DNA of 64,000 nucleotides, from contig CAZESS010000006.1 in the NCBI GenBank assembly GCA_964514975.1, positions 1 to 64,000 of the forward strand, given 5' to 3'. The DNA comes from an uncultured Thermoplasmatales archaeon (GTDB taxonomy: Archaea; Thermoplasmatota; E2; UBA202; DSCA01). The position numbers were made by a program, and so were the translations under genes. Below are positions 28,047-47,838 of this stretch, in pieces. Numbering within the stretch: position 1 is the stretch's first letter; each line of letters opens with the position of its first letter. The notes beneath the pieces were generated by a model, which did no database searches, was not told the DNA's origin, and was given only the letters and a program-made list of their open reading frames with translations.

Positions 28047-29777
28047 TTACCTCTCAAAAATTTTGATAGTGCCGCGTTCGTAAACCAGTTCATAAGGTGC
28101 GGCGTGCGGTGCCGACCACAACATTCCAGCAACACTGTCTTCAACTGGCGTGTCTTTATGCGACCTTTGGTTTACTGCGTACCACTTCCCTTGTACCAAC
28201 TCTTGATCCACAACGATATATTTTATGTTTAGTTCTCCGATAGCCTGCTCAGCTTCTTGGAAAGTAGTACTAGCGAAAAACTCCGCAGGGACAATACCAG
28301 CTTGTGTAGGTGATGTAAGCGGGACTCTTTCTCCTATGCGTATAATCCAATTACCGTAGTCCCACCAACTTAAAATTCCGTAAGATGGTTTTTCTTGTAA
28401 AGATGTTTGGTAATAGGCTTGTGGCGTTTGGAAAGGTTCGGGAGTGTTCTCTTTTAACCATGATGACGCTACGTACCAATCTGCGTTAATGTTATTGGAG
28501 ATGTGTGCTAGTCGGTAGGTGTTGGTAAAACTAACTCCCACCGCAAATACTAAGATTACCGTCAACACCGCCGCGCGAGCTTCTTTGTTAACCCACTTTA
28601 AGCAGTATAGAATGAAGAACGCGGATAAGGTACTTATAGGTACAATGGTGTAGTAACCCCAACGACGTTGCCCAACGTTGGCTACTAACATTGTGATGGC
28701 CCAAATCCAAAATAGGGCGGTATGCCTGTCCTTCTTAGCAAACCATAAGCCTCCTGGCAGGAATATAACTGCTAACCCGAACGTTGCCAGTAACGTTCCT
28801 ACGTCGGGTGGACTGGCTTCTCCTATGTAAGTATCGCCGCCCCAAAACATTGTAGACAAAAGTAGTAACTCGTACCTGAAGGTCATGGTAGTCAAAACTA
28901 TCGCAATAGGAGTCACTGCTGTGAGAGCGAACAGCAACATGGATTTGTCTTTTATTAGCTTGGTAAGCAGCCACAAAACTAACGGAGCTACTGCCAACGC
29001 CGAAGTTAAAGCCTTGGGTATAGGGCTTGTCAATCCTAGCGTAAAGGGGAAAGCTACGATCCCAGGTATACTGAACAACTTTACCAAAAAGAACTGATCT
29101 TCATCTGCCTTAAGTCTTCTTAAGAACTCGTACCAAAGCCAGGCAAGTAAGATAAGTATGAACAAGGCGGTACCAGCCCAAGTGAGATGGTATAACCCTA
29201 AGACAATTCCTGTTAAAAACATCCACCTGTATTTGCCGGATTTTAGAGACTCAATAAACAATAATATACAAGACGTCGCTAGCAAGGTCTCTAGTACGTG
29301 GTGGTCGAAGAACCCTAACATTGAACGGTGAAACAGTTCTCCAGGAAGTATCGCTACAAATAGTGCGGCTATTACACCTACCCAACCATTGAAAAGTACT
29401 CTGCCTAAAAAGTACGTCAATCCCACTATACATACTAGTAGTATGGGCGGAACAAAAGATATGGCGGTCTCGCCACCTATACTTCCTACAGCATATCCTA
29501 TCCACGTGAGTAGCGGTGGGTAGCCGTTTGCAGCCCCGTCAGGAAACTTTGCGAACATATCCCACTCAATTTGATGGGGAAAGTTCGCGGACATCGCATC
29601 TACTAAACGCATATGATACCAAGAGTCTACGCCCCTAAACCAAACTAAGTCCTGTACGAAGATCTTGTCCAGCTGTCCTGCTACCCTTAACAAGAACGTT
29701 AAGATTCCTATTCCTAGCAAACACAGGTATTGAGGCTTGAAGTTTGTTTTAACTTCTTGTACCTTACGCTTAGTCAA
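28047..29777 (-). CDS. aglB: Oligosaccharyltransferase, STT3/AglB family
   Basis: About 13 TMs, DSWYH, GFFDHH, WWDYG, DQELVQGK (archaeal DK-type motif). Confidence 0.9.
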   Translation of the reverse strand: MTKRKVQEVKTNFKPQYLCLLGIGILTFLLRVAGQLDKIFVQDLVWFRGVDSWYHMRLVDAMSANFPHQIEWDMFAKFPDGAANGYPPLLTWIGYAVGSIGGETAISFVPPILLVCIVGLTYFLGRVLFNGWVGVIAALFVAILPGELFHRSMLGFFDHHVLETLLATSCILLFIESLKSGKYRWMFLTGIVLGLYHLTWAGTALFILILLAWLWYEFLRRLKADEDQFFLVKLFSIPGIVAFPFTLGLTSPIPKALTSALAVAPLVLWLLTKLIKDKSMLLFALTAVTPIAIVLTTMTFRYELLLLSTMFWGGDTYIGEASPPDVGTLLATFGLAVIFLPGGLWFAKKDRHTALFWIWAITMLVANVGQRRWGYYTIVPISTLSAFFILYCLKWVNKEARAAVLTVILVFAVGVSFTNTYRLAHISNNINADWYVASSWLKENTPEPFQTPQAYYQTSLQEKPSYGILSWWDYGNWIIRIGERVPLTSPTQAGIVPAEFFASTTFQEAEQAIGELNIKYIVVDQELVQGKWYAVNQRSHKDTPVEDSVAGMLWSAPHAAPYELVYERGTIKIFER

Positions 29778-30457
29778 AGCTCACCCGCTTTTTCCAGGTC
29801 TTTTTTGTTGTTGATGTTTATGTACTGTCCATTAAATGGTACGGCTTTCAACGGTAAACCGCCTTCTACCATACTTTGCAATACGTCAGTAATCTCTACC
29901 TCGTTTCTTAGAGGAGAAGGTTTTGCGTTTTGAATATATCGAAATACGTCTTGGTCGAAGAAGTACACACCCATTCCACATAACAACCCTTCCGCGCGTT
30001 TAGGTTTTTCCCAAAGACGTGTTATGCGGTTGAAACCATCTACCTCAAAACCGTAACCGGCTTTAATACTAGCTATGTCCGCCTGTTTCCAATATCCTAC
30101 GCCGCTTTTGATGTGTCCGGTGAGATGCGTTTCCCACTCGCCTTTGCATACGCAATCCCCCAGCACTACTACGAACTTATCTCCGACCCAATCTTGTGCA
30201 GGGAGTATAGCATCTGCGATACCCTTAGGTTGCGTTTGCTGTACTACAATAAAAGGGAGTGTTTCAAAAGTTTGCAGTACTTCGTAGAAGTGTTCAGTCC
30301 ACTGAGGGTTGGCTACTATTACAAAACCATCTACACAACTTCTCCAACCTTCCATCACTGTTTGTAGTACGGTTTTGTTGTTTATTTGTACCAGAGGTTT
30401 GGGTACATTTGCTCCTAAACGTCTTCCCGCTCCTGCACACAACACTACACACTTCAT
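29774..30457 (-). CDS. Sugar-1-phosphate nucleotidyltransferase (RfbA-like)
   Basis: LCAGAGRRL..PKPL, QPKGIADA, EKP, EVEITD. Confidence 0.85.
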   Translation of the reverse strand: MKCVVLCAGAGRRLGANVPKPLVQINNKTVLQTVMEGWRSCVDGFVIVANPQWTEHFYEVLQTFETLPFIVVQQTQPKGIADAILPAQDWVGDKFVVVLGDCVCKGEWETHLTGHIKSGVGYWKQADIASIKAGYGFEVDGFNRITRLWEKPKRAEGLLCGMGVYFFDQDVFRYIQNAKPSPLRNEVEITDVLQSMVEGGLPLKAVPFNGQYININNKKDLEKAGEL

Positions 30458-31503
30458 TTCGGCTCCTTATTAAATAAGTGCTTCTCTTGTATGATCCACT
30501 GTAGCAGTTCCACCAGTCCGGACTCGGGTAGAGTAACGGGCCGCCAATCAAAGCTTTGAAGGGCTTTATCGTAGCTACCAACAAACCACCATAAGTCTCC
30601 TTGTCTGGCAGGGTGTAAGGTTGTAGGGATGTTACACTCCAAGTACTCCTCGTAAAACTTCAGTACGTCGTGGATGGATATAGAGTTTTCGTCACCACTA
30701 CAAATATTGTACGTGCCTTTAGGGCAACCGTTCTCAAACCACTTGAAGAAGGCTTCTGCGGCATCACGTACGTATAAGATATCCCTTACTTGCTTGTCGG
30801 TACCGAAAACTTTAATGGGTTGGTTGGTGATAGCTTTAATAGCGAAGTTGGCTACCCACCCGTGATCCTCACTTCCAAATTGTCTAGGACCGTAAATACC
30901 CGTAAGTCTAAAGTTCACTGCAGGAAGATCATATGATTGTGCGAACGACTCCACGTATAATTCACCCGCTCTTTTAGATACGTGTAAAGGTGTTAAGGTA
31001 CCCTTTAACAAAGGATGCGTTTCAGGTATTTCGTCGTATTGTAAGTGAAGTAGTTTAGTAGACCTTTCGGTGAGGTGGCGGTTTATTTCGTTACCGTATA
31101 CGTGTATGGAAGAACAGTTAGCTACTGGTACGTTAAACCACTTCGCAGCGTGCAAAACATTGAAGGTACCTAATACGTTTGTTTGCAGGTCTAACCGCGG
31201 TTCGTCGAGCGCTATCGTCATCGCAGGTTGAGCAGCACAATGTGCTATGAAGTCCGGACGCTCGTTTCCGATTGCTCGGAAGATTTCCTCTTTGCAGGAT
31301 ACATCTTCTGGTATAACTTTTATACCCTCTTGCGCGAACAGGTGTAGGTTGTATCGGCGTACCTGCTCTACGTCGTACGTAGTTCGACTATACTCGAACT
31401 TGGTAAGATTGTCAAACGCTACCGCTTCCCATCCAAGTTCTAAGGCTCGTGTACAAATATGTGAGCCAAGAAACCCACATCCCCCAGTAACTAAAACTTT
31501 CAT
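30454..31503 (-). CDS. NAD-dependent NDP-sugar epimerase (CDP-paratose 2-epimerase-like)
   Basis: TGGCGFLG, IYGPRQFG.EDHGWV, QVRDILY; catalytic YxxxK reads HVSK/LHVSK. Confidence 0.85.
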   Translation of the reverse strand: MKVLVTGGCGFLGSHICTRALELGWEAVAFDNLTKFEYSRTTYDVEQVRRYNLHLFAQEGIKVIPEDVSCKEEIFRAIGNERPDFIAHCAAQPAMTIALDEPRLDLQTNVLGTFNVLHAAKWFNVPVANCSSIHVYGNEINRHLTERSTKLLHLQYDEIPETHPLLKGTLTPLHVSKRAGELYVESFAQSYDLPAVNFRLTGIYGPRQFGSEDHGWVANFAIKAITNQPIKVFGTDKQVRDILYVRDAAEAFFKWFENGCPKGTYNICSGDENSISIHDVLKFYEEYLECNIPTTLHPARQGDLWWFVGSYDKALQSFDWRPVTLPESGLVELLQWIIQEKHLFNKEPK

Positions 31504-31515
31504 TCATCCTCCTTT

Positions 31516-31554
31516 ATTATAACTGAGTTGAGTCAATTAGTAACTAGTCTATAG
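31516..31554 (-). promoter_or_regulatory. Promoter with CTATAGACTA box
   Basis: Box-23 nt-TATAAT, then AAGGAGG. Confidence 0.7.
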
Positions 31555-31897
31555 AACTTTTTTCATCTTTCAGCAGCTTCTCAATATCCCTTAACAACCT
31601 CATTTGCTCGCTATCGTGGGCATGCATTTGTCTATTCCTAAAAGTCCAAATGGAGGGTAGTACCAACACATACACAAACGCCATCATCCCCAACGCCAGT
31701 AAACAAAAGAAACCTAAGAAGTAGTAAACTTTCATCCAAGGAAAAATTACAAGCAGATGAGGTCTTAAGGTTTCGTACAATACGATTGTTACCGAAATAA
31801 AGTTTATGGCCCCTAGCATAGGTAACATCGTATACAAGGAGTCAATCAAAGCCCCTAACCAAGGGACGTTTCTTTGCTGCCACCACTTCAACTTCAT
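31544..31897 (-). CDS. 2-TM membrane protein
   Basis: Hydrophobic helices. Confidence 0.6.
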   Translation of the reverse strand: MKLKWWQQRNVPWLGALIDSLYTMLPMLGAINFISVTIVLYETLRPHLLVIFPWMKVYYFLGFFCLLALGMMAFVYVLVLPSIWTFRNRQMHAHDSEQMRLLRDIEKLLKDEKSSID

Positions 31898-32622
31898 TTA
31901 CTAATCCCTTTTACCTTTAAGTTGAGCAGGATTAGAGAACCGAAAGTTTCGGGCAACGTGAACAATATTCCCACTACAACCCCTATAAATAAGTACCACG
32001 GCTCGTTAGTAAAGTGGTAAGTTAAGGGCCCGACAACAAACATAGAAAAAACCGCTTCTCCGACTGTAGGATGAGGATAGGTGTGGTATTTGTTTACGAA
32101 GCGTTTATATGCCGCTGCAAAAAGGGAAGTAGGTTCTTCGTTATTTATCATCCACACGTCTCGCTCTCCTATTTGAACTTTTATACGGTATATGGCGGAG
32201 GAAAATCTCATGACTAGGTAATGAAAGCTCATCCACACCAACAGTAGTACCGTGAGTAGTACGTTTGCGGCGCCTACAGCTAAGCCGATCGTTACACACG
32301 TACAAACTAATCCGTCTAAGACAAAGTCTTGCATACCTCGTACAGTATCGTCTACTTCTAACATTCGATTTATTCGACCGTCGATACTATCTGTTAGCAG
32401 GAAAGCTAGATACAGTATCGCACCTAATCCTAAGCGCTGGTAACCGAAAGCGGTCGCAGCGCACAAACCTATTAAAAAGGTGGTCAAGGTGGCGAAGGTG
32501 GGCGACAAACCTAACTTTATAGCCAAAAAGGCGAGAGGTGTTGCTAGGTGGTCTAAAACAAGCTTGCGTATCCATATGTCACGAGGTTTTCTCGCGAGGC
32601 GTTTGGCTTGTTGGTAGTTCAT
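31894..32622 (-). CDS. CDP-alcohol phosphotransferase family protein
   Basis: DSIDGRINR...G..DFVLD motif, multi-TM. Confidence 0.8.
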   Translation of the reverse strand: MNYQQAKRLARKPRDIWIRKLVLDHLATPLAFLAIKLGLSPTFATLTTFLIGLCAATAFGYQRLGLGAILYLAFLLTDSIDGRINRMLEVDDTVRGMQDFVLDGLVCTCVTIGLAVGAANVLLTVLLLVWMSFHYLVMRFSSAIYRIKVQIGERDVWMINNEEPTSLFAAAYKRFVNKYHTYPHPTVGEAVFSMFVVGPLTYHFTNEPWYLFIGVVVGILFTLPETFGSLILLNLKVKGISK

Positions 32623-32628: not shown

Positions 32629-34269
32629 CTACTCCTCCCACATCGGAGTTGTTAGAACGTAAGAATCGCCAGTTTGGAAGACGATGTCATTTTCGAAATC
32701 TAGCTGCCATTCTTCGAAGGTGTACTGCTTTCGCAACCCTATTCCGTTCCACGAAGTAAAAGCTCCATCTTGCGTGTTCCGGCTACGCACGAAGATATAA
32801 CCCTCTGGTACCGGGCGTGGAGATTTGGGTATCTCAGATATGTAGTCGCGTTGTGGCCCCATTGGTCCCAACCTTTCGGAGAATAGCTGTGCACCATAAA
32901 CATCTGCAACTACGGGAAAAAGGTCATTGTCTATTACATAGTCTCTAGCAATGTAGTCCTCGGGAGTGGTAGTTGTACCCAAATCTATGCGATGGCCACT
33001 TAAACTATAGTTATATGGGACGGTAAAGGTTTCGTTATTAGGTACTTTTATTAGTTCGAAAGCTAGCCCAGACGTGAATACGAAGAAGATGAGGCAAAGG
33101 GCTGTTAGTCCTTTTAGATTTCCCGTAACGAACGGCGCTACCATTAAGGTAAGTCCCACCAAGTGAGCTATTCTTGTGATGTTGAGGGTGTTCGAAAATC
33201 CGGGAACGGTGCAAAGCAGCACTACTACTAAAGAACCCGTGCCTAGCAACCAAAAGTTGGGTACTTTACGTAGGTGCCACAAACCCTTAAAAGCTAGCAA
33301 TATAATTATCCACGCGAAAAGGATGAATACAAAGGTTAGCGACGAGGACAACTTATAACCAAAAAGGCTTCGAACCGTAGGTTCGTACATTTTAAGGGAT
33401 ACAGTCGTGTCTGTCTTTTTATTCTCCGCTTCTACTTGCGTTGTACCTTCCGGGGCGGGCTCAAGGAGAAGATCAGGATTGGTTACTTGTAAACTAACGG
33501 GCGCCCAATGGTTGTAAAGGTGGAACACCTTTCTAGCTACAGCTCCGTCTTGTGCTGTGGGAAAATAAATTGTACTAACTAGCAACATTGCAGCAGTAAA
33601 GACTACTAAAGGTTTGGTTGTGTACATCTTTCGTACTAGGGCAACGACGACTCCGGGAAGCAAAATAACCGCTGCTATAATAGTTACGGAGTAATGTGTT
33701 AAAGGTATAAGAACCCCTAATACTGCCAGTATCACATATTTATATTTGCTGTGTTTGAGTAGTAGTATACCGAACCCTAGAACTAACCAAGCTTCCGCTA
33801 GCATTTGTCGTGGAATGGTGGGAATCTCTAAAAAGAAAGGACTGAAGGCTATTACAAGGAAACTGCCTAAAAGGGCTCGTTTTGGAGTTGTCCACTGCTT
33901 ATAAACCGAATATAAAACGCACGGCACGGTTGCGAAAATTGCTGGATAAACGAGTTTGTAGGCCCACATGTTAGGGGGCGTCACGTATGCAAATATGTTT
34001 GTGCCTTGTGGGGTGTTTATTAGCGGTTGCCACACGTCCGCACCATGACGCAACAAAACAAAGTAGTACTCCAAATGTACGTCTGAGCCCACTAAGTACG
34101 GGCCCGCGAGAGTAGTGGTATAGATCATGCTTAGTGCAGTAGCGTAGATTATGTGTAGATGGTACTCTTCTGGTATCTTGCCTGACATCGCCAAATAGAT
34201 AGCAACACAAATCGAGACTATGGTAAGGATTGCTACGGCCATCACAGGCCAGATTCTCCCCACTGACAT
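32629..34269 (-). CDS. Multi-TM DUF2206-like (GT-C-like) membrane protein
   Basis: LVGSDVHLEYY, RQMLAE, THYS motifs; many TMs; start uncertain. Confidence 0.65.
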   Translation of the reverse strand: MSVGRIWPVMAVAILTIVSICVAIYLAMSGKIPEEYHLHIIYATALSMIYTTTLAGPYLVGSDVHLEYYFVLLRHGADVWQPLINTPQGTNIFAYVTPPNMWAYKLVYPAIFATVPCVLYSVYKQWTTPKRALLGSFLVIAFSPFFLEIPTIPRQMLAEAWLVLGFGILLLKHSKYKYVILAVLGVLIPLTHYSVTIIAAVILLPGVVVALVRKMYTTKPLVVFTAAMLLVSTIYFPTAQDGAVARKVFHLYNHWAPVSLQVTNPDLLLEPAPEGTTQVEAENKKTDTTVSLKMYEPTVRSLFGYKLSSSLTFVFILFAWIIILLAFKGLWHLRKVPNFWLLGTGSLVVVLLCTVPGFSNTLNITRIAHLVGLTLMVAPFVTGNLKGLTALCLIFFVFTSGLAFELIKVPNNETFTVPYNYSLSGHRIDLGTTTTPEDYIARDYVIDNDLFPVVADVYGAQLFSERLGPMGPQRDYISEIPKSPRPVPEGYIFVRSRNTQDGAFTSWNGIGLRKQYTFEEWQLDFENDIVFQTGDSYVLTTPMWEE

Positions 34270-39020: not shown

Positions 39021-39026
39021 TCTCCT

Positions 39027-39350
39027 TTATAAATACCGCCATTGCTCGCACGTAGTACGTGCTATGTCCGTAACGGTTCTTCCTTTGGTACATTTTTGGG
39101 ATTGCAAGTCGCAAAACTTACACCAGTTACAGGTATGAGGTCCTGGATAGGTCTTAAACGGCCTTACCATCATCTCCCTGACTTCCTTTAGAGGCGGTTT
39201 TTGTTGGAACCTTGCCGCCAAATGTTCCCATTCGTCTTTGGTAAGGAATCTTTCGGCTGTAGCGGGCGCGTCCACAATGGCTATGCAAGTGCCCGTATCT
39301 TCAAGATCCAATACCGGAAAGTACTTAAACATCACCCTTCCACACTCCAT
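39027..39350 (-). CDS. Cys-rich hypothetical protein
   Basis: CNWCKFC...C...C. Confidence 0.5.
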   Translation of the reverse strand: MECGRVMFKYFPVLDLEDTGTCIAIVDAPATAERFLTKDEWEHLAARFQQKPPLKEVREMMVRPFKTYPGPHTCNWCKFCDLQSQKCTKGRTVTDIARTTCEQWRYL

Positions 39351-42439: not shown

Positions 42440-42907
42440 TTAGTCTAAGTAGTATCTTTTCCAGTGGAGCTTGCGATAGTCACGCAACCACAACACTAAC
42501 AAGGTTATAATCATAACAGCTAAAACAATTATTACGTAATAGTACCACTGAAACGAGTCTGAAGACGGAGGAGGCGAAGGTTCTTCCACTTCCTTCAGAT
42601 CTTCTGGGGCCTGTTCGGATTGTTGCTTGTCTTGCAAGTAGTCCAAATACCATTGTTGGAGGTGGATTACTTGCGGAGGCTTAACTTCAGACTCCTCAAA
42701 AACGGAGAAAGGGTCTCTACCATAACTTTCCGGAGGACACCCGTACGGACCTGAGTCCCACGAGTACTGCCTTTTAGGGTCTGGCTGTTCCTGCTCTTCT
42801 TCTACGACTTTTACCCGCAAACTTACGTCGTCCTCTCCTTCACAGTCTGCTAGTAAAGGTTGAGGTAGCAAAAGTAGTAACAGGAACGGAAAAACCCACT
42901 TAACCAT
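42440..42907 (-). CDS. Signal peptide + single beta strand + disordered linker + C-terminal TM (candidate fibre anchor)
   Basis: DCEGEDDVSLRVKV right after signal; P/E/Q-rich linker; TM. Confidence 0.6.
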   Translation of the reverse strand: MVKWVFPFLLLLLLPQPLLADCEGEDDVSLRVKVVEEEQEQPDPKRQYSWDSGPYGCPPESYGRDPFSVFEESEVKPPQVIHLQQWYLDYLQDKQQSEQAPEDLKEVEEPSPPPSSDSFQWYYYVIIVLAVMIITLLVLWLRDYRKLHWKRYYLD

Positions 42908-43402
42908 TTATCTCCCCCGGGGCGCAAGCTTTATGAAGGTAAGGACCGCTAACACCAGTACCATGAAACCTATGATAATGTAATATAGTTCAGTTACGTG
43001 TCCCTCGAAGTCAAGAGGACCGTAAGGCGCTGCACCCTTCACTGTTAAAGGTATTTGTATTCCTACACCCACAGCAGCACCCGTCATAGGCTTCAACCTT
43101 AGAAACCCTTCATGAACTCCGCTAGCAACTACTTTTATGTCTAAAGTGATAGTACGGTTGTTCTCGTCAAGCGTTACATACGTAGGACTGTACTGTAGTA
43201 CCGTTGAAGGAATGTCTTTTAAGGTTATGCGAACATCTCCTACGTATCCTGAGGTTTCTGTAAGGGTGATGGAACTGTCACCTTCCTCGATAACAACATT
43301 GGTAGGGGTTATGCCAAACTGACTAGCGCTTACGGGTTCACATAAAGCAAGTAAAGCCGCTAAACCTATAATGAACCACGCTATAATCTTTTCCAACAAC
43401 AT
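42908..43402 (-). CDS. Exported Ig-fold protein with C-terminal TM (chaperone-like)
   Basis: FGITPTNV...YSPTYVTL...GVGIQIPLTV. Confidence 0.6.
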   Translation of the reverse strand: MLLEKIIAWFIIGLAALLALCEPVSASQFGITPTNVVIEEGDSSITLTETSGYVGDVRITLKDIPSTVLQYSPTYVTLDENNRTITLDIKVVASGVHEGFLRLKPMTGAAVGVGIQIPLTVKGAAPYGPLDFEGHVTELYYIIIGFMVLVLAVLTFIKLAPRGR

Positions 43403-43412
43403 TTTTGCCTCC

Positions 43413-43431
43413 GAGGGGGATGAACCCCCTC
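43413..43431 (-). other. GC-rich intergenic hairpin abutting RBS
   Basis: GAGGGGG-5 nt-CCCCCTC, no U tract. Confidence 0.6.
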
Positions 43432-43437
43432 AAATGT

Positions 43438-44340
43438 TTATACAGGCGTAACCCAGAAGGTTAAGGTACCTGTTTCCGTTCCGGGCGGTGTAGCTACGGG
43501 AACTCCCAAACGCGCATCTACGTCAAAGGAACCTGCAACTGCAACACCTTCGCTCCACATGTTAAGGAAAGCCCATCCGCCGCCAGAGTCGAACTCCAGG
43601 TTTCCGTTAAAAAGATCTGTAGCACTAGCTTCAACAGTCACGTCGACATCTCCACAATTACTTACTGTCAACGCGTTACCTATCTCCACTTCTGTACCGG
43701 GCTGTACGCTTCCAAAGTCTAAAGAGCTTGGCGTAACGTCTATACATACGCAATGTGCATCTTGCACTTCTACGGTAAGGTCTACCTCGTCGTTACCTGA
43801 GCAAGGTTCAGTAACGAACTGTACCCAATCAAAGGCTACTTGCCCGTAGGTGTCGAAGTATTCCCACTGTACTCCTGTAGCGCAAAACTCCACCACGTGC
43901 TGCATTTGGTTAGGAAGCCCGAAAACTGTTAAGTCCACAGTTTCGTCAACCCACGTCTCTGCAGGATCGCTAGGATCAGGGTCGTTGTAAGTGAAGACAG
44001 TTACACCATCCACCTTCACTTCGTAAGAGTCGTCGCCGATGCCTTCTAAAGCTGACCATGAAAGTTCCAGCGGATTCGCGCACTCGCAACATTGGAAGGT
44101 GATGTCAGCGCAAGGATCTTCGGTAGTTTCCCATACTACGCGACAATCGTCTACGCCTCCATAGTTACCTCCAGAGTTTGCCGGCTCGATCGGGCCCCAC
44201 CCGTTCATCACAACAGAGCTTTCGCTAGTGGTATTCCCAATGTCTACGTCCCATGTCCCGGGACAAGACGTGTCCGCCGTTGCCATGGTTGGTACTAAAA
44301 GTACCGCAACGACTGCTAGGGCTGCAATAAGTTTGTGCAT
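43438..44340 (-). CDS. Secreted two-domain protein: lectin-like N domain plus pilin-like Ig domain
   Basis: Signal peptide; CSGNDEVDLTVEV..IDVTPSSLDFG..TVSN..TLTF; AGGAGG RBS. Confidence 0.65.
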   Translation of the reverse strand: MHKLIAALAVVAVLLVPTMATADTSCPGTWDVDIGNTTSESSVVMNGWGPIEPANSGGNYGGVDDCRVVWETTEDPCADITFQCCECANPLELSWSALEGIGDDSYEVKVDGVTVFTYNDPDPSDPAETWVDETVDLTVFGLPNQMQHVVEFCATGVQWEYFDTYGQVAFDWVQFVTEPCSGNDEVDLTVEVQDAHCVCIDVTPSSLDFGSVQPGTEVEIGNALTVSNCGDVDVTVEASATDLFNGNLEFDSGGGWAFLNMWSEGVAVAGSFDVDARLGVPVATPPGTETGTLTFWVTPV

Positions 44341-44399
44341 GTAAAACCTCCTCCTTTTCATACTTTCGTGTAATTAACCCCCTACACGTAATCTACCAT

Positions 44400-44439
44400 A
44401 TTATACATGAGTGTAGCAAGTTTTTTCAATAGTGTATAG
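44400..44439 (-). promoter_or_regulatory. Sigma70-type promoter with CTATACACTA box
   Basis: Box, TTGAAA-18-TATAAT. Confidence 0.75.
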
Positions 44440-44443
44440 AAAG

Positions 44444-44665
44444 TCATTCATAAATGTTTGTAAGTCTCCCGTCCGGCAAATAGCGTTCCCGAGAGGGTTT
44501 TGCACCTAGAAATACGGATCTTAAGGACGGATCCGATAGCAATAGTTCGATTGTAGGAAGCCCGTATTGAGCATATACTGCGCCCATACAATACAACATT
44601 TGTTCCTGGTGACGTGTCTTATTAAACCAGACACGCCTTACATCGTTATAGTAATCGCGCCTCAT
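44444..44665 (-). CDS. Hypothetical protein
   Basis: ATGA coupling. Confidence 0.55.
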   Translation of the reverse strand: MRRDYYNDVRRVWFNKTRHQEQMLYCMGAVYAQYGLPTIELLLSDPSLRSVFLGAKPSRERYLPDGRLTNIYE

Positions 44666-44913
44666 AACTTCTCCAATAACTCCTGCAACTGGAAACCATC
44701 CATACTAATGCATATTTGGTGATCGCGGGAGCCCCACATTATACCTTCGGTATGCAGATACTTTAGCAAATGATCTGCGCAACAATAGTAAAGGTCGTAC
44801 ATCTCGTCCCCGTGCAAGTAGCACTGCATGGAGAGACCTTCGTGTTCAAAAGGGAGGAGACACCAATCACAAGTTGTCACGCTGATTTCTCGTTGTAGTA
44901 TCGTCTTGCCCAT
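44662..44913 (-). CDS. Small Cys/His metal-binding protein
   Basis: CDWC...YCCADH. Confidence 0.55.
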   Translation of the reverse strand: MGKTILQREISVTTCDWCLLPFEHEGLSMQCYLHGDEMYDLYYCCADHLLKYLHTEGIMWGSRDHQICISMDGFQLQELLEKL

Positions 44914-45101
44914 GTCTCCTCTTTCCTCGTTTGCACAAAATGTAGACGTCTGTTTCTGGTTTGATGAAAGTAGTATGATATTAGCGAGTTTAGTTGAGGA
45001 GAGGGTCTCCTGTTAAAGAAACCCGCAACAGGGTCATACATTTCAATAAACGTATTTACTAACTCACTTATGCTGGGCTCGTTGGTTCTACTCTCTTCCA
45101 T
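44877..45101 (-). CDS. Hypothetical protein
   Basis: GAGG RBS. Confidence 0.45.
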   Translation of the reverse strand: MEESRTNEPSISELVNTFIEMYDPVAGFFNRRPSPQLNSLISYYFHQTRNRRLHFVQTRKEETWARRYYNEKSA

Positions 45102-45246
45102 AATGGTGACCTCTTAAAAGATTTTCTACAACTTGGGACTCGGGGACGTTCTCTTGTTCTGCCGTTTTTGCGATGAAGTCTTTTATTACCAGCTCAGCGG
45201 CAAACTCGAAATCTCCCTTTTCCATGTTAGTTAGATCTTCTCCCAT
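45088..45246 (-). CDS. Small acidic protein, 52 aa (not in ORF track)
   Basis: AGGAGG RBS; MGEDLTNMEKG... Confidence 0.55.
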   Translation of the reverse strand: MGEDLTNMEKGDFEFAAELVIKDFIAKTAEQENVPESQVVENLLRGHHYGRE

Positions 45247-45267
45247 CTTGCCCTCCTAATATTCGTA

Positions 45268-45564
45268 CTACCACTTCCACACTACTAAAGGTGAGTATAT
45301 CAGCACTGTTAGTGTGACGGTAGCTACAACGCCTAAAACCAATTTAGGGTATAATCCTGTAATACGTGAAGCCAAATAGCAAATGACAATGCAAGCCAAA
45401 ATGAAAATGGGTGTATGGAAGATCCTTCCGTGAGTAAGGTTGGGAGCCACGGTTTTCCATAACAACATCGAGAAAAAGTGGTCCAGGTCAACCAATACAC
45501 TAGCAAACCCACACAACCCGAAGATAAGAAGTGCAGTAGCGGCTTCCATATAAAATTCGTCCAA
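45268..45564 (-). CDS. Membrane protein with DLDH/H..FH motif (metal-dependent hydrolase-like)
   Basis: LVDLDH...HGRIFHT, TMs. Confidence 0.55.
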   Translation of the reverse strand: MDEFYMEAATALLIFGLCGFASVLVDLDHFFSMLLWKTVAPNLTHGRIFHTPIFILACIVICYLASRITGLYPKLVLGVVATVTLTVLIYSPLVVWKW

Positions 45565-45591
45565 CCTTCCTTAAGAATTATTTGTAGTATT

Positions 45592-45984
45592 TCACTCATC
45601 TTCGCTGCGACTCATTATAGCTTGTGTACACAGTGCGGCTACGCCTACGCCAAGCAACATTGTGGCGATTCCAGAAGCTACAGGAAGGTTATGTAGTTCG
45701 TCGTCCTTATACGGTTGGGCTTGTAAAAGGGCAAAGACGGGAGAGTTTTCGGCTTTACCTGTGATGTGGTAACGAATTTCTAACATATCGTTATCGTCGA
45801 CATTTAGGACCTCTACCAACTCTTTATTGGTTAAGTATTGTTGCACAAGCAGGTACTCTTGAATGGTAAGAGTAGCTTCGCCCTCAGCACCGAATATAGT
45901 ATCGTCGGCGATAGCCGAATAGGATGGGACTCCAAACGCAAGAAGTACAAGGGCTGCCGCTCCTATAGCTAATACTACCCTCAT
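45592..45984 (-). CDS. 2-TM membrane protein, paralog of 45981..46412
   Basis: FGAEGEATLT...LQAQP. Confidence 0.7.
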   Translation of the reverse strand: MRVVLAIGAAALVLLAFGVPSYSAIADDTIFGAEGEATLTIQEYLLVQQYLTNKELVEVLNVDDNDMLEIRYHITGKAENSPVFALLQAQPYKDDELHNLPVASGIATMLLGVGVAALCTQAIMSRSEDE

Positions 45985-46412
45985 TGCGGCTCCCTATCGA
46001 CGCTCTCGTCAAGCATTCTATTCCTACGTACGCTGCATGAGATAAGTGTTCCAAATACTAGTATAATTACCGCGCACATAAATGACAGTCCCCCAATTAG
46101 GTAATAAGACACTTGTGTCAGAAAACTTTTTTGCGGATGGGCTTGCAGGATATCAAAAGCAAGTGCGTCTTTTGACACATTTTCTATACTGTAAGCTACC
46201 TTTACAGAACTTTCCCCGGCTTCCACAATTTGTACTTCTCCCGAGAAAACCTGTGACTGCAGTTGAATAAGTTGCGATAAGGTGATAGCAGCCTCCCCTT
46301 CGGCTCCGTAAACATCCCCATCGGTAAAAAGTAGATATGAAAGATAACCGAAAAAAGCTGCAAGTATTAGAGTGGTTACTAAAGCAAGCGTTTCGGATAT
46401 GCCAATTTTCAT
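45981..46412 (-). CDS. 2-TM membrane protein, paralog of 45592..45984
   Basis: YGAEGEAAIT...LQAHP. Confidence 0.7.
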   Translation of the reverse strand: MKIGISETLALVTTLILAAFFGYLSYLLFTDGDVYGAEGEAAITLSQLIQLQSQVFSGEVQIVEAGESSVKVAYSIENVSKDALAFDILQAHPQKSFLTQVSYYLIGGLSFMCAVIILVFGTLISCSVRRNRMLDESVDREPQ

Positions 46413-46425: not shown

Positions 46426-46779
46426 TTAGGTCCTATCGTAGTCATCGTCCTTTCGGATTATGTCATTAGGCTCATACTTAGGTACCACTTCAATGAACTT
46501 CAAATCGGTAAGAGCTTCTACGCGGTGCCATGCTTTTACAGGAATGCTTACAATCTCTCCGGGGCTTAACAAATGTTCTTGTACCTCTTCACTGCCCTCG
46601 AGTTGCACAATTACCCAACCTGTACCACTTATACCATACCACGTTTCGTGTCGATGAGAGTGTTGTTGTAGAGAGATCCTACATCCAGCCCTTACGGACA
46701 ATACTTTAGCACCACAGTCTTTGCTATCGACAAGCAGCAATTCGTATCCCCACGGTTTATTTGTGCGCAGCGGTATCAT
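46426..46779 (-). CDS. Cupin, mannose-6-phosphate isomerase type II C-terminal-like
   Basis: KPWGYE, SLQQH..RHETW, DIIR.DDDY.R. Confidence 0.85.
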   Translation of the reverse strand: MIPLRTNKPWGYELLLVDSKDCGAKVLSVRAGCRISLQQHSHRHETWYGISGTGWVIVQLEGSEEVQEHLLSPGEIVSIPVKAWHRVEALTDLKFIEVVPKYEPNDIIRKDDDYDRT

Positions 46780-47471
46780 TTGAACCTTTCTGTAAGGAGA
46801 CGTTTGCCGATTTTGAGACCGTCTACTACTTTCAACTTAGAGTGAGAGTCTTCGGGTCGGGAGTAGTAGTCAATAGGTATTTGGATGATGCTGTAATGAT
46901 TTTTTACCGCTTTTGCGAACAACTCCGCTTCTAAGGTAAACCCGTCGCTGTTCAAATGCAATCTTCTAAAGCTGGCAGCTTCGCCCACCCAAAGACCTGT
47001 ACACACGTCGGACATCTTCACTCCGAATAACATGCTAGCCCACAACGACAAAGCTTTGTTGCCAAAAGCGTTTAAGGCTGTCATAGAGCCCTTTTCACGC
47101 GTTTTTCGTATTCCTACTACAAAGTTACGCCTACCCATATTCATTCGGTGTTTTACATAAGCTTGGTAAACAGCTTGAGGGGGATATGTATAGTCCGCAT
47201 CGATCATAGCCATGAAGGGTGTATTAACGTGGCGCAGCGCGCCTCGAACTGCAAAACCCTTACCACGTGCCGGCAAGTTAACAACCCGCGCACCAGCTTC
47301 AGCAGCTATTAAGCCAGTATCGTCTGAAGAGTTGTTAGCGACTAATACATCGCAGCCGGGCATACAAACGTATAAATCGCGTACAAGAGGGCCGATAGTA
47401 GCTGCCTCATTTCTGGCTGGCAGTAGGATAGTCAAACGATGCAAGTCTGGAACTAGAGAATGGTAAGTCAT
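46776..47471 (-). CDS. Glycosyltransferase family 2 (polyprenol-phosphate glycosyltransferase-like)
   Basis: LPARNE, GKGFA, DADYTY, SD.CTG, GFTLEAE, SKL. Confidence 0.85.
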   Translation of the reverse strand: MTYHSLVPDLHRLTILLPARNEAATIGPLVRDLYVCMPGCDVLVANNSSDDTGLIAAEAGARVVNLPARGKGFAVRGALRHVNTPFMAMIDADYTYPPQAVYQAYVKHRMNMGRRNFVVGIRKTREKGSMTALNAFGNKALSLWASMLFGVKMSDVCTGLWVGEAASFRRLHLNSDGFTLEAELFAKAVKNHYSIIQIPIDYYSRPEDSHSKLKVVDGLKIGKRLLTERFK

Positions 47472-47838
47472 AGCCTCCAACTCCGAAAATTATTTGTATA
47501 CCAAGTTGCTCGCAAGTAGGGCTTTCTGGCAGGTTCTCCAAGTCCCACGTTCTACCGCCCTTTGCAAATATGTCGGGTCGATAGTAACGCAAGGACTCTC
47601 TACATGATATGTCTTGGTCGATATTTGAAACGACTTCTCCACGGCCTTGCAGACCCCAATCCAATACGTATTTTCGTACATAGTAAGGTAAAACGTAATA
47701 ACCCTTCTTTTGTAGAAGCTGGTCGTCTCGGGTAAGTATAACCAACAGCCTGTCGCCTAACGTTAAGGCTTCTTCAATGTTACAAATGTGTCCCGGGTGT
47801 AAGGGATCATAACCACCACTAACTGCTACGACGTTCAT
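47407..47838 (-). CDS. Cytidylyltransferase (HIGH family, TagD/RfaE-like)
   Basis: SGGYDPLHPGH, PDIFAKGG, SSS. Confidence 0.85.
   Translation of the reverse strand: MNVVAVSGGYDPLHPGHICNIEEALTLGDRLLVILTRDDQLLQKKGYYVLPYYVRKYVLDWGLQGRGEVVSNIDQDISCRESLRYYRPDIFAKGGRTWDLENLPESPTCEQLGIQIIFGVGGYDLPFSSSRLASFDYPTASQK

Follow-up and report, generated by a model that had tools for sequence, protein, structure and literature searches.

A putative virus-like element encodes its own AglB-type oligosaccharyltransferase within a glycan-building gene cluster

The 64-kb window analysed here is the first part of contig CAZESS010000006.1 (herein C6, 91,192 bp in total), in which the glycosylation genes form a compact minus-strand block together with an aglB gene. 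All of the cluster genes that the earlier note had listed were present at its coordinates when analysed with Pfam and NCBIfam. Three radical-SAM/SPASM genes, a CDP-alcohol phosphatidyltransferase-like gene and a cytidylyltransferase-like gene had been omitted. The features used in the following are:

1032..1994, plus strand: candidate glycoprotein 1, with signal-like N-terminus, Ig-like ectodomain and C-terminal TM helices
1994..4108, plus strand: candidate glycoprotein 2 ('spike-like', 704 aa), with signal-like N-terminus and three C-terminal TM helices
6335..7018, plus strand: Zot/AAA-type morphogenesis-like ATPase (Pfam AAA 5.3e-8, Zot 5.8e-7)
22296..28043, minus strand: replication block, immediately downstream of AglB
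22296..23984, minus strand: protein-primed PolB (pPolB), matching tectivirus-type polymerases
25097..25480, minus strand: MazG-like gene
25674..28043, minus strand: UDG-exo-PolA fusion, matching 1406 phage records
28047..29777, minus strand: short AglB/STT3 oligosaccharyltransferase (OST), 576 aa, with its stop 3 nt ahead of the PolA start
29774..30457, minus strand: sugar-1-phosphate nucleotidylyltransferase (Pfam NTP_transferase 1e-22)
30454..31503, minus strand: NDP-sugar 4,6-dehydratase/epimerase of the SDR family (Pfam Epimerase 1.3e-41)
31544..31897, minus strand: 117-aa protein with three TM segments, no family match in Pfam or NCBIfam
31894..32622, minus strand: CDP-alcohol phosphatidyltransferase-like membrane protein (weak Pfam match, 3.2e-4, under cut-off)
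32629..34269, minus strand: DUF2206-like protein, predicted GT-C-fold glycosyltransferase, 546 aa
34242..35393, minus strand: radical SAM/SPASM enzyme 1 (Pfam Radical_SAM 3e-20, SPASM 4.7e-8)
35330..36157, minus strand: SAM-dependent methyltransferase (Pfam Methyltransf_11 8.7e-6, 26.7 bits, cut-off 21.2)
36136..37248, minus strand: radical SAM/SPASM enzyme 2 (Pfam 3.1e-17 and 1.3e-7)
37636..38694, minus strand: GT4 (Pfam Glyco_trans_1_4 3.7e-13)
38691..39350, minus strand: two small ORFs (109 and 107 aa), no family match in Pfam or NCBIfam, separating this GT4 from radical SAM enzyme 3
39325..40551, minus strand: radical SAM/SPASM enzyme 3 (Pfam SPASM 7.6e-13, Radical_SAM 1.2e-10)
41195..42226, minus strand: GT4 (Pfam 2.6e-20)
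42440..46412, minus strand: small exported or membrane-anchored proteins within the cluster (42440-42907, 42908-43402, 43438-44361, 45268-45564, 45592-45984 and 45981-46412), with an N-terminal hydrophobic segment and with or without a C-terminal TM segment
46426..46779, minus strand: cupin of the mannose-6-phosphate isomerase C-terminal type (Pfam 3.3e-10)
46776..47480, minus strand: AglJ-like GT2, polyprenol-phosphate hexosyltransferase type (NCBIfam TIGR04182 6.8e-44; 150 bits, under the 325-bit cut-off)
47407..47838, minus strand: cytidylyltransferase-like protein (Pfam CTP_transf_like 3.1e-7)

The AglB protein was recognised above cut-off by both Pfam STT3 (5.6e-23) and AglB_core-like (6.9e-15), scored 289 bits against the 450-bit cut-off of NCBIfam archaeo_STT3, and in PDB searches matched Archaeoglobus fulgidus AglB-L (3waj, 4.4e-44) as well as 3vu0 (3.6e-14) and 3vgp (4.1e-12). 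The WWDYG, DHH and DK-type motifs that had been claimed for it are all intact, reading GVD51SWYH, FD158HH160, E320, W471WDYG475 and DQELVQGK531. In an alignment of 35 homologues with a mean column identity of 46% (A1), D51, D158, H160, E320 and WWDYG were invariant and K531 was conserved in at least 90%. The catalytic motifs align with those of A. fulgidus AglB-L (3waj/5gmy/7e9s; short-paralogue C-terminal domains 3vgp and 3vu0), to which the C6 protein shows about 25–30% identity while belonging to a separate clade and being shorter, by roughly 290 residues, than the 875-aa chain. In solved OSTs, the WWDYG and DK-type motifs bind the +2 Ser/Thr of the sequon. Judged by its sequence the C6 AglB looks active, and the proposal that the element encodes its own OST was borne out to that extent, with the gene lying inside a glycan-building cluster.

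Homologues of many of the cluster genes were found in related contigs. The nucleotidylyltransferase adjoins AglB in L085–L087, L091, L094 and L105, and the epimerase, which also matches the NCBIfam dTDP-glucose 4,6-dehydratase family under cut-off (2.2e-35), has counterparts of 50–53% identity in L087, L091 and L094. The AglJ-like GT2 has homologues (34–36% identity) immediately upstream of AglB in L088 and L089, and that of the cytidylyltransferase-like protein (45%) adjoins AglB and a DUF2206-like gene in L006. Radical SAM/SPASM enzyme 2 is 66% identical to its homologue in L091, and enzyme 3 shows 66% identity across 87 aa at the edge of L094. The GT4 proteins encoded at 37636..38694 and 41195..42226 have homologues in L094 (32%) and in L099 and L100 (38–40%), respectively. 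The 117-aa protein has a homologue at the equivalent position in L091 (35% identity), and a flippase-like role for it would be a guess; no flippase, no initiating enzyme of the phosphoglycosyl-transferase type and, with Pfam and NCBIfam, no GtrA-like family was recognised. For the CDP-alcohol phosphatidyltransferase-like protein, which matched the NCBIfam archaetidylinositol-phosphate synthase under cut-off (3.2e-7), no homologue was found in the related contigs.

The 'DUF2206-like' label could be refined. The C6 protein itself had no Pfam match, homologues in two relatives matched DUF2206 (4.2e-22 and 1.7e-12), and the gene neighbours AglB in L006, L088, L089, L091 and L094. Its AF2 model (pLDDT 73, pTM 0.76) gave VIA-align Z scores of 18.2 with STT3A (6s7o_A, 384 residues aligned), 18.1 with PglB (5ogl_A, rmsd 5.1) and 17.1–17.5 with A. 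fulgidus AglB, and all 50 of the 50 entries listed were GT-C-type membrane enzymes. According to this model, the protein is a second GT-C-fold glycosyltransferase.

At least seven metagenome contigs, independent of one another, carry the AglB module beside equivalent replication and 7-deazaguanine genes, with AglB adjoining PolA in L091 and UvrD helicase and queD/queE genes in L088 and L089; the L094 copy is broken into two ORFs. The OST module is thus conserved across a family of related elements. That the cluster could be a chimeric host fragment was contradicted both by this recurrence and by an independent contig of 22,878 nt from a second assembly, having an even depth of 11.4 and bridging C6 positions 21285–40000; exact C6 pieces were also present at low depth in a second sample. 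In the phylogeny that the earlier note had suggested, the uncultured short AglBs (21 rows) were monophyletic (support 100/98), with a chromosomal Dehalococcoidia AglB (L005, 611 aa, flanked by lspA, tsaD, gltX and rluD) as their sister (100/100), and the short clade grouped weakly with long Chloroflexota AglBs (70/61). The short clade is nearly missing from 185,579 species genomes, its members among the best 80 AglB loci being only L005 and L006.

We consider, with a probability of roughly 0.6, that C6 is a virus-like mobile element with its own OST and glycan-building cluster, wrongly binned, having Dehalococcoidia-class (Chloroflexota) bacteria as its likeliest hosts and its own surface proteins as preferred substrates.

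With regard to those substrates, the sequon counts given before were exact, namely 6 in 1032..1994 (which has 17 Asn), 11 in 1994..4108, 5 in 7990..10323 and 4 in 11049..11564. Only the first two proteins stood out as sequon-rich when each sequence was compared with 1000 shuffles of itself, with 6 observed versus 2.2 expected (p 0.017) and 11 versus 5.6 (p 0.011), whereas 7990..10323 (5 versus 6.1, p 0.76) and 11049..11564 (4 versus 2.1, p 0.14) were not above the composition-based expectation. All 6 sequons of 1032..1994 lie within its ectodomain (model pLDDT 80), and all 11 of 1994..4108 precede the anchor. Comparing exported with cytoplasmic ORFs, the nine plus-arm proteins with an N-terminal hydrophobic segment had 31 sequons versus 18.9 expected (Poisson p 0.0066), an excess that was lost without the two top proteins (14 versus 11.2, not significant), and 146 ORFs without a TM segment had 75 versus 77.7. 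From these shuffle tests and counts, the enrichment is real but modest and due to two proteins. The small exported proteins within the cluster have 0 or 1 sequons apiece. Among relatives, 18 homologues of the 1032 family had 71 sequons versus 37.1 expected, with N177-x-T179 invariant in all 18, and the best 150 homologues of the 1994 protein, a family with 2255 representatives, had 1382 versus 932.5. In the AglB-bearing L094, the spike-like protein had 17 versus 8.4 (p 0.005) and the A2 homologue 2 versus 1.75, not enriched. Of six island homologues whose genomes have no detected AglB, three keep the invariant N-x-T, which may therefore be structural. The proteins encoded at 1032..1994 and 1994..4108 would most likely be the preferred AglB substrates.

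It is alternatively conceivable, though doubtful, that the module mainly re-decorates the host surface (S-layer, other exported proteins or lipid-linked glycans), for the purpose of superinfection block or altered receptor display, in parallel with phage gtrABC O-antigen conversion, with the element's own proteins being incidental substrates. The conserved core of a polyprenol-phosphate GT2 and GT-C enzymes, which is the logic of gtrB/gtrC, would fit this, as would the restriction of the sequon excess to two proteins and the packing of AglB, 3 nt from PolA and immediately upstream of the replication genes, which places it outside a structural block. Furthermore, of 201 Dehalococcoidia-class genomes sampled, only 23 had the AglB core domain, so the element would bring new surface chemistry to many hosts. 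Against it, both membrane-protein families are sequon-enriched across relatives and unenriched in one island whose genome lacks AglB (G173, where no AglB was found; 2 versus 2.0 and 4 versus 5.1 expected), the GtrA-like family was not recognised, and Pfam scans of C6 revealed no integrase, so that nothing points to lysogeny.

Substrate preference apart, the host of C6 had to be considered. C6 is binned with an archaeal MAG having four TBP genes and no sigma-70, and could belong to an archaeal virus or plasmid, of the lineage of the MAG or another, that captured the AglB module from an archaeal host, with the Dehalococcoidia links reflecting old inter-domain transfer. This we hold to be unlikely. 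In its favour, the ATPase, assigned to a 'head morphogenesis' PHROG (4.6e-8), had as its sole viral matches in tblastn the Asgard-archaeal viruses WyrdV1 (a Lokiarchaeota virus) and Muninn virus (3e-7), the AglJ-like GT2 and DUF2206-like protein resemble archaeal families, with Atlas look-alikes being 56–88% Archaea, the record of a Nitrosopumilaceae spindle-shaped virus contains an STT3-like ORF without annotation (see below), and bacterial promoters and terminators were not in excess (sigma-70 promoter scan 22 versus 24.8 in shuffles; terminator scan 18 versus 15.8). However, the GC content of C6 is 0.462, compared with 0.51–0.61 in the ten largest other contigs and about 59% for the whole MAG; C6 had neither nucleotide matches to the rest of that genome nor a CRISPR spacer match linking the two, 9 of its 184 ORFs matched the rest of the genome at 26–50% identity, and the MAG's own STT3 (contig C20) is far removed from the C6 AglB (tree branch 1.9). 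The AglB clade has a gene from a bacterial chromosome as its sister, the hosts named among the matches listed for UDG-exo-PolA are bacteria, and pPolB is nearest to those of Bacillus tectiviruses.

The profile of the 1032 family matched 6 of 401 Dehalococcoidia-class genomes, on contigs as long as 1.52 Mb, and none of 400 other genomes from the phylum of the MAG; this difference between two lineages is small (Fisher p 0.03). The 1994 protein was not found in any of 100 other genomes from the class to which the MAG belongs. Both families have homologues, distant at 24–38% identity, within islands of Dehalococcoidia chromosomes, as in G173:C42, where the island sits between ftsZ and hflX and holds a serine recombinase, a D5 primase, an ATPase and homologues of both membrane proteins. 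The DUF2206-like profile reached about 300 bits, at full length, in two of five AglB-positive Dehalococcoidia genomes, 9–18 kb from AglB, whereas its best score among 200 genomes from the phylum of the MAG was 106 bits. Comparisons of tRNA and MetK did not tell the two candidate hosts apart. With the sister relationship of AglB and the membrane-protein islands, C6 probably lies outside the MAG that holds it, the binning being wrong, and its hosts are probably bacteria of the Dehalococcoidia class. The pointers to Dehalococcoidia, from AglB, the DUF2206-like GT-C protein and the two membrane-protein families, had not been foreseen in the earlier note.

Rather improbable is that C6 is a large plasmid, or a chromosome fragment of a low-GC unsampled organism, with an ordinary cellular glycosylation island. 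Pfam and PHROGs searches of its 91 kb yielded no capsid, portal or terminase gene, there are no terminal repeats, and IMG/VR scans gave no relative; both the 'virus' label and the completeness of C6 are accordingly putative, given the missing genes and repeats. Yet the 91 kb has no ribosomal, tRNA-synthetase or other housekeeping genes, carries phage-typical content (pPolB, UDG-PolA, MazG, RusA, Rad52, SNF2 and UvrD helicases, a queCDE/folE set and two tRNAs), and its AglB is of the clade so scarce in species genomes; Atlas lists the cluster nearest to the 1994 protein as 100% viral, which is a lead only. C6 may produce virions. Finally, that the AglB homologue is inactive or uses another acceptor (lipid, polysaccharide or O-linked sites), as its short form without the peripheral C-terminal domains of 700–900 aa cellular enzymes, its sub-threshold archaeo_STT3 score and the split L094 copy could suggest, is very improbable given that every residue lining up with A. 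fulgidus AglB at its catalytic and sequon-binding sites is kept.

Returning to the reading of C6 as a virus-like element that glycosylates its own surface proteins, activated sugars would be supplied by the nucleotidylyltransferase, 4,6-dehydratase/epimerase, cupin isomerase and cytidylyltransferase-like protein, whereupon the AglJ-like GT2 and two GT4s would assemble a short glycan on host polyprenol phosphate on the cytoplasmic side, and the methyltransferase and three radical-SAM/SPASM enzymes would probably modify it. The glycan would then be flipped and moved by the short AglB to the Asn of N-X-S/T sequons in exported proteins, with the DUF2206-like GT-C enzyme probably adding another lipid-phosphate-borne sugar at the outer face; we infer the lipid carrier, the glycan and the order of steps.

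The Haloferax volcanii AglB pathway uses AglJ, soluble GTs and AglB, followed by AglD/AglS on the outer face. C6 has the matching parts, namely a polyprenol-phosphate GT2, soluble GTs, an AglB carrying the WWDYG and DK-type motifs, a methyltransferase and, as an enzyme possibly acting outside, the second GT-C protein, but differs in having the module on a mobile phage-like element with a minimal 576-aa AglB, three radical-SAM/SPASM enzymes, no recognised AglR-like flippase and a probably bacterial host. Among the Dehalococcoidia chromosomal AglB loci compared (L005, G151:C25 at 105–131 kb and G168:C8), G151 resembles C6 in having AglB, NTP transferase and epimerase adjacent and, no more than 25 kb away, a GT2 and a DUF2206-like gene, although these loci show only 27–37% identity to the C6 genes and the cellular AglBs, unlike that of C6, are mostly 780–820 aa and lie among housekeeping genes. 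Phage gtrABC O-antigen cassettes are likewise mobile, with a polyprenol-phosphate GT2 and a GT-C transferase working on the outer face, and attach one sugar to a polysaccharide, whereas the OST of C6 is directed to Asn and comes with a glycan-building set of several enzymes, with no GtrA-like family detected.

Archaeal viruses, in the parts of the sources consulted, encode modules of GTs, NDP-sugar dehydratases and methyltransferases with no OST, thought to modify virion or host proteins, with transfer assumed to be made by the host or via direct GTs (PMC13700489, PMC10866085); compared with these modules, C6 differs by its own OST. The suggested search for STT3 in viral data did give a hit, in the Nitrosopumilaceae spindle-shaped virus NBC1 (BK067786.1), while the IMG/VR scans gave nothing related to C6. 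ORF25 of NBC1 (597 aa, Pfam STT3 7.3e-28, core-domain matches under cut-off) is 27% identical to the C6 AglB over residues 358–523 only, had no glycan-building cluster near it in the 12.5 kb inspected, and is a second, independent virus-borne STT3-like gene. The record labels it just 'ORF25', and the terms 'STT3', 'AglB' and 'oligosacchar' are absent from the text of the paper (PMC10866085). No described virus-encoded OST was found in the literature searched, agreeing with the earlier view that viruses generally rely on the host OST. The C6 module would represent a portable archaeal-type N-glycosylation set carried by the element, and its combination of an own OST with glycan-building genes would, as far as the literature searched shows, be new to any described prokaryotic virus.

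As the earlier note had claimed, the gene at 28047-29777 (-) of contig CAZESS010000006.1 (C6; 91,192 bp) encodes a real AglB/STT3 oligosaccharyltransferase (OST) of 576 aa, with both Pfam matches above their cut-offs (STT3 5.6e-23, 82.5 bits against 24.5; AglB_core-like 6.9e-15, 55.8 bits against 27) and with the catalytic motifs kept. Its closest solved relative is AglB-L of Archaeoglobus fulgidus (3waj_A, 4.4e-44), with the motif pairs GVDSWYH/GNDPWYY, FDHHVLE/NDHHIWE, SWWDYGNW/SWWDYGHW and DQELVQGKWYA/DIEMETGKYYA. In an alignment of 35 homologues (46% mean column identity), the first-loop catalytic Asp (GVD51SWYH), D158 and H160 of the second acidic motif (FD158HH160), E320 and W471-W-D-Y-G475 were all invariant, and K531 was at least 90% conserved. 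The protein thereby has both the WWDYG (W471-G475) and DK-type (DQELVQGK531) motifs, which bind the +2 Ser/Thr of the sequon. E320 (IGEASPP) lies in a stretch that the HMMER alignment to 3waj does not span, and may be the Glu of the flexible external loop, the OST motif named TIXE-type. The NCBIfam model for archaeosortase-A-associated OSTs (TIGR04154, archaeo_STT3) gave 289.1 bits, under its cut-off of 450 bits, which places the protein outside that family; because the match spans model positions 3-604 of 831 and stops there, we regard the enzyme as a short, minimal form. Judged from its sequence, it would transfer a lipid-linked glycan to Asn.

A search of 5.8 billion proteins found about 50 such short AglBs, of 541-647 aa and 33-57% identical to that of C6. 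Using one genome per species (185,579 species), 465 of 598 candidate stretches encoded an AglB relative, and among 26 loci sampled from the 80 best kept, only L005 (a Dehalococcoidia MAG contig, 613-aa frame) and L006 (567 aa) were short, the other 24 having 700-915 aa. Two trees, a quick one of 88 rows and a careful one of 57 rows made without 30 redundant short rows, the long-branched P0055 and an Eisenbacteria row, agreed with each other. In the careful tree the 21 uncultured short AglBs were monophyletic (ultrafast bootstrap 100, SH-aLRT 98), so that the short element AglBs make up one clade, with the L005 AglB as its sister (100/100). The short clade and L005 grouped weakly with long Chloroflexota AglBs (70/61), and the MAG's own STT3, on contig C20, was very distant (branch 1.9). 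As the L005 gene is flanked by genes for an M16 peptidase, tsaD, signal peptidase II, rluD, gltX and a ZIP transporter, it is a bacterial chromosomal gene.

To our knowledge, viruses of all domains are thought either to borrow a cellular OST or to use direct glycosyltransferases. Scans of IMG/VR with the C6 AglB protein and with the alignment found no relative, and one of 50,697 phage records, BK067786.1 of a Nitrosopumilaceae spindle-shaped virus, was the sole match. Its ORF25 at 4951-6744 (+) encodes an STT3-like protein of 597 aa (Pfam STT3 7.3e-28), which the record labels only ‘ORF25’. The text of the paper describing this virus contains none of the terms ‘STT3’, ‘AglB’ and ‘oligosacchar’, and its authors report that in Nitrosopumilaceae spindle-shaped viruses they could not annotate any glycosyltransferase with high confidence (PMC10866085); elsewhere, viral glycosyltransferase modules are described without an OST (PMC13700489). 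The literature searched held no description of a virus- or phage-encoded OST, nor any paper on an OST or N-glycosylation in Dehalococcoidia.

The window corresponds to positions 1-64,000 of C6. The genes of C6 lie on the + strand over the first 22 kb, on the - strand over 22-63 kb and then once more on the + strand as far as the contig end. The features that bear on the nature of the element are as follows.

Features of C6 outside the glycan cluster
1032-1994 (+): membrane protein, candidate glycoprotein
1994-4108 (+): spike-like membrane protein, candidate glycoprotein
6335-7018 (+): Zot/AAA-type ATPase (Pfam)
22296-23984 (-): protein-primed PolB, pPolB (Pfam)
25674-28043 (-): UDG-exonuclease-PolA fusion (Pfam)
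50497-51174 (-): queE (Pfam)
52012-52479 (-): queD (Pfam)
52532-53668 (-): bacterial-type S-adenosylmethionine synthetase, alongside the queCDE/folE set, as is a TSCPD protein
58312-58905 (-): folE (Pfam)
59911-60579 (-): queC (Pfam)

Pfam scans of 32, 37, 26 and 46 ORFs (about 140) also identified MazG, a UvrD-type helicase, Rad52, RusA and an SNF2 helicase, and C6 has two tRNAs. None of these ORFs was a ribosomal, aminoacyl-tRNA-synthetase or other housekeeping gene. Neither Pfam nor PHROGs, the latter used on 32 of the same ORFs, found any terminase, portal or capsid family, and 0 of the tailed-phage (Caudoviricetes) hallmarks (terminase large subunit, portal, HK97-type capsid) were recognised in the ORFs scanned. 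Neither direct nor inverted repeats occur at the ends of the contig. The two polymerase families lying side by side at 22296-28043 (-) are an unusual pairing for one element. The genes at 50497-60579 (-) amount to a full preQ0/7-deazaguanine set, found also in the related locus L088, which suggests modified DNA; no TGT/DpdA-like transglycosylase was recognised with it by Pfam. The ORF at 11577-12191 (+) has an N-terminus, MLKIVMVSILVSLLLVGC-SD, that reads as a lipoprotein lipobox, which a regex screen failed to catch and which would suit a host possessing signal peptidase II, as the L005 contig does.

One condition under which the earlier note would have had to be abandoned was that the cluster is a chimeric host fragment, and this was checked: an assembly chimera is ruled out by a bridging contig together with synteny in other metagenomes. 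A second assembly, from run X1, contains a contig of 22,878 nt that spans 21285-40000 with 9 differing letters and an even depth of 11.4, bridging pPolB, PolA, AglB and the cluster; since X1 may be the source sample, only the assembler, and not the data, counts as independent. From another sample of that study came exact pieces of 153-297 nt along the stretch at a depth of 2-3, one of them within AglB, whereas run X3 yielded nothing. Stronger evidence comes from relatives, as found by tblastn of the 184 C6 ORFs against 26 loci and Pfam on 91 ORFs of those loci. Locus L091 has, in a row, the radical SAM protein (66% identity), a 546-aa polytopic protein (38%), a 117-aa protein, the epimerase (50%), the NTP transferase, AglB (34%) and PolA (43%), and L088, from a 114.5-kb contig, has the UvrD helicase (54%), two proteins, queD, TSCPD and queE, then the epimerase, GT2, AglB and a DUF2206 protein. 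Parts of the arrangement recur in L089, L094, L099, L100 and L085-L087. In L094, AglB is split at 9932-11737 (+) into an STT3 N-terminal ORF of 358 aa and an AglB core ORF of 230 aa, which might be explained by a frameshift, by an error in sequencing or by decay of this copy. In L088, the 14-21.6 kb stretch downstream of AglB and DUF2206 encodes a collagen-repeat protein, a NADAR domain protein, a B12-binding radical SAM protein, a PAPS-reductase-like protein, an EF-Tu/CysN-like GTPase, a DegT aminotransferase and a NUDIX protein, suggesting amino-sugar or sulfated-glycan chemistry.

The glycan cluster lies upstream of AglB on the - strand, with stops and starts mostly overlapping.

Glycan cluster of C6, in order from AglB
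1-4 (-): NTP transferase; 4,6-dehydratase/epimerase; 117-aa protein with three TM segments; CDP-alcohol phosphatidyltransferase-like protein (weak)
5-9 (-): 546-aa polytopic protein; radical SAM/SPASM; methyltransferase; radical SAM/SPASM; GT4
10-13 (-): two small ORFs; radical SAM/SPASM; M78-like protein (weak); GT4
14-17 (-): six small exported or anchored proteins; cupin; AglJ-like GT2; cytidylyltransferase-like protein

The gene list first drawn up for this cluster was real as far as it went, with the three radical-SAM/SPASM genes absent from it. As radical-SAM genes (SPASM or B12-binding type) are also found in the glycan clusters of L088, L091, L094, L099 and L100, we lean towards a role of these enzymes in glycan tailoring. 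The GT2 domain scored above its Pfam cut-off, and against TIGR04182 (AglJ/dolichyl-phosphate hexosyltransferase) the protein gave 150.4 bits (6.8e-44), under the 325-bit equivalog cut-off, so that it is AglJ-like in function, as a putative rather than an established member of that family.

The 546-aa protein had been labelled DUF2206-like; it gave no Pfam match at E 0.01 or better, but its homologues in two relatives match DUF2206 (PF09971; cut-off 35.6), at L088:11775-13748 with 79 bits (4.2e-22) and at L094:7145-8746 with 47.3 bits (1.7e-12). An AlphaFold2 model from a 12-sequence alignment had a mean pLDDT of 73.1 and a pTM of 0.76. With this model, the first 21 places in Foldseek were all GT-C enzymes, led by AftA (2.7e-4) and then yeast and human STT3. 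VIA-align gave Z 18.2 for human STT3A (384 residues aligned, rmsd 7.3), 18.1 for PglB (309 residues, rmsd 5.1), 17.1-17.5 for A. fulgidus AglB, 17.3 for DPY19, 17.0 for Pmt4 and 14.8 for ArnT, and all 50 entries among the matches listed were GT-C-type membrane enzymes. Three residues of the family, D63, H65 and E67, are invariant and follow the first TM helices, in an acidic first external loop. At profile level the likeness was slight: the hhalign comparison between the DUF2206-like and AglB profiles was weak (probability 41%), and hmmsearch of the DUF2206-like profile against the PDB found no match. The literature searched made no mention of ‘DUF2206’. On its model the protein has the fold of a GT-C glycosyltransferase, which gives the cluster two GT-C enzymes.

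With regard to the host, the MAG holding C6 is archaeal, with four TBP genes; no sigma-70 region 2, McrA or 16S rRNA was found in it. C6 has a GC content of 0.462 versus 0.51-0.61 in the ten largest other contigs of the MAG (1.96 Mb, 66 contigs). As blastn-short gave no match of C6 to the rest of the MAG, there is no spacer and no shared DNA between them; 9 of the 184 C6 ORFs match the rest of the MAG at 26-50% identity. Further low-GC contigs of the same MAG are C34 (10.4 kb, GC 41.5%), with a Mu-like prophage I protein, a cement protein, a Phage_cap_E capsid protein and a 593-aa GT4-methyltransferase fusion; C42 (3.2 kb), with a tail tube protein and Mu Gp36; and C49, with a cytidylyltransferase 47% identical to that of C6. 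Since C34 and C42 bear tailed-phage structural genes, viral contamination of the bin reaches beyond C6; tblastn gave no link of these two contigs to the relatives of C6 or to the Dehalococcoidia islands.

Those islands came from searches with the two membrane proteins. A profile built from 18 sequences of the 1032-1994 family matched 6 of 401 genomes of the Dehalococcoidia versus 0 of 400 others of the MAG's phylum (Fisher p 0.03); in one genome a contig of 1.47 Mb bears three copies, and in another a contig of 1.52 Mb bears one. The 1994-4108 protein matched 1 of 101 genomes of the Dehalococcoidia versus 0 of 100 others of the MAG's class. That match, contig G173:C42, is a 93.5-kb bacterial chromosome piece with mutL, yidC, rnpA, ftsZ, rpoD, dnaG, topA, tig, clpP and ffh, in which an island of roughly 22 kb (about 15-37.5 kb; L172-L174) lies between ftsZ and hflX. 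This island, the only one examined over its whole length, encodes a D5-type primase, a serine recombinase, a DNA methylase, two ORFs of >1000 aa and a Zot-like ATPase 24% identical to that of C6 (E 3e-5), with adjacent homologues of both C6 membrane proteins. Other island sites with such homologues are at 250, 273 and 820 kb of G288:C1 and at 968 kb of G210:C1, and the three copies in one genome have identical scores. At a threshold of E 1e-8 the islands yielded no capsid family, and they could represent a family of proviruses or of elements that form vesicles.

The pathway genes point the same way. The DUF2206-like profile matched at full length, with about 300 bits, in two of five AglB-positive Dehalococcoidia genomes, 9-18 kb from AglB; among 200 other genomes of the MAG's phylum no score exceeded 106 bits. 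In the Dehalococcoidales genome G151, AglB, an NTP transferase and an epimerase are adjacent, a GT2 and the DUF2206-like gene lying no more than 25 kb away. The UDG-exonuclease-PolA fusion matched 1406 phage records, all hosts named among the matches listed being bacteria, and the C6 pPolB is closest to Bacillus tectiviruses. Against a bacterial host stand the C6 ATPase, whose only viral matches are two Asgard-archaeal viruses (3e-7; a PDB sequence search with it gave nothing below E 0.2), the mostly archaeal GT2 and DUF2206 families, and the sigma-70 promoters and intrinsic terminators, which over 1-20 kb of C6 did not exceed shuffles. The tRNA-Arg, with partial matches of about 74-84% in the archaeal class and Dehalococcoidia alike, and MetK, 46-56% identical to Dehalococcoidia versus 44-53% to the MAG's class (the MAG's own copy 52%), do not discriminate, and a purine-rich, Shine-Dalgarno-like region at -14 to -5 in the base composition upstream of the genes is compatible with either domain. 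The host is probably bacterial rather than the MAG's archaeon, and Dehalococcoidia are likely. As the AglB core domain occurs in only 23 of the 201 sampled genomes of this class, patchily and in some with 2-3 copies, an element with the whole pathway would be independent of host capacity.

Four exported proteins had been named as sequon-rich targets, with counts that proved exact. Compared with shuffles of each protein, two were enriched, 1032-1994 (6 sequons versus 2.2 expected, p 0.017) and 1994-4108 (11 versus 5.6, p 0.011), and two were not, 7990-10323 (5 versus 6.1) and 11049-11564 (4 versus 2.1, p 0.14). In each of the two enriched proteins the N-terminus is signal-like, TM helices lie towards the C-terminus and every sequon falls between these parts. 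The 7990-10323 (+) product, an exported protein of 777 aa, has a MAM domain (Pfam 2.2e-15), known mostly from animal surface proteins. Nine proteins of the + arm with an N-terminal hydrophobic segment together had 31 sequons versus 18.9 (p 0.0066), and 14 versus 11.2 without the two top proteins; the 146 ORFs without a TM segment had 75 versus 77.7. In the 1032-1994 family, N177-x-T179 is kept in 18 of 18 homologues, with 71 sequons in total versus 37.1 expected, and in the best 150 of 2255 representatives of the 1994 family there were 1382 versus 932.5, with 75% of these representatives above expectation. In the AglB-bearing L094, the spike-like protein had 17 versus 8.4 (p 0.005) and the 1032-type protein 2 versus 1.75. 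The AglB profile, which matched the MAG itself and G151, G152 and G153, gave no match in the six island-bearing genomes of the Dehalococcoidia class; the G173 island homologues had 2 versus 2.0 and 4 versus 5.1 sequons, and the N177-x-T179 sequon is lost in three of six island homologues. This contrast is only suggestive, because numbers are small and rows related. In a model of 1032-1994 (pLDDT 80.4) an Ig-like sandwich precedes the helices; a fold search with this model found no viral spike, only generic Ig-like/CARDB-like sandwiches (TMq about 0.2), and tblastn of the 1994 protein matched none of the 50,697 phage records. Altogether, the evidence for these proteins as targets is modest.

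The most likely mechanism would be a self-contained pathway that builds a glycan on a polyprenol-phosphate carrier and ends in AglB, with the second GT-C enzyme acting on the outer face, and its main use would be glycosylation of the element's own anchored surface proteins. The chief rival in terms of function is that the module re-labels the surface of the host, in the manner of phage gtr cassettes. That would fit the core of a GT2 and GT-C enzymes, gtrABC cassettes consisting of a small GtrA-like flippase, a GtrB GT2 and a GT-C transferase, and the position of AglB 3 nt upstream of PolA, outside any structural block; a GtrA-like flippase was, however, not recognised in C6, the 117-aa protein with three TM segments having no family match in Pfam or NCBIfam.

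Keeping to glycosylation of the element's own proteins, we propose that large virus-like elements infect wall-less, S-layer-type Dehalococcoidia with a complete, portable N-glycosylation system (a minimal OST, a second GT-C enzyme and glycan-building genes) and modify their own membrane-anchored surface proteins even in hosts that lack the capacity, a reading to which we give a chance of roughly one in three (0.35). Virion formation, enzyme activity, glycan structure and substrates are parts of it that we infer. The earlier note holds in its core, namely that a mobile element encodes an OST and a glycan pathway of its own, with the amendments that its host is probably a bacterium, that the cluster is larger and has two GT-C enzymes, and that the case for the targets is modest.

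The mis-binned 91-kb contig is hereby flagged in a MAG scored 98.9% complete, and the about 50 compact OSTs (around 575-600 aa) in natural diversity could serve glyco-engineering. If the proposal is true, this would be the first virus-encoded oligosaccharyltransferase, and nature would offer an example of a virus that equips a bacterium with an entire protein-glycosylation pathway; it also becomes testable whether the virus glycan is a shield or adhesin or serves to re-label the host. The AglB systems of Dehalococcoidia, unstudied so far, would become accessible, and an element bringing both an OST and a lipid-linked glycan pathway would show that the last, membrane-bound step of N-glycosylation is mobile.
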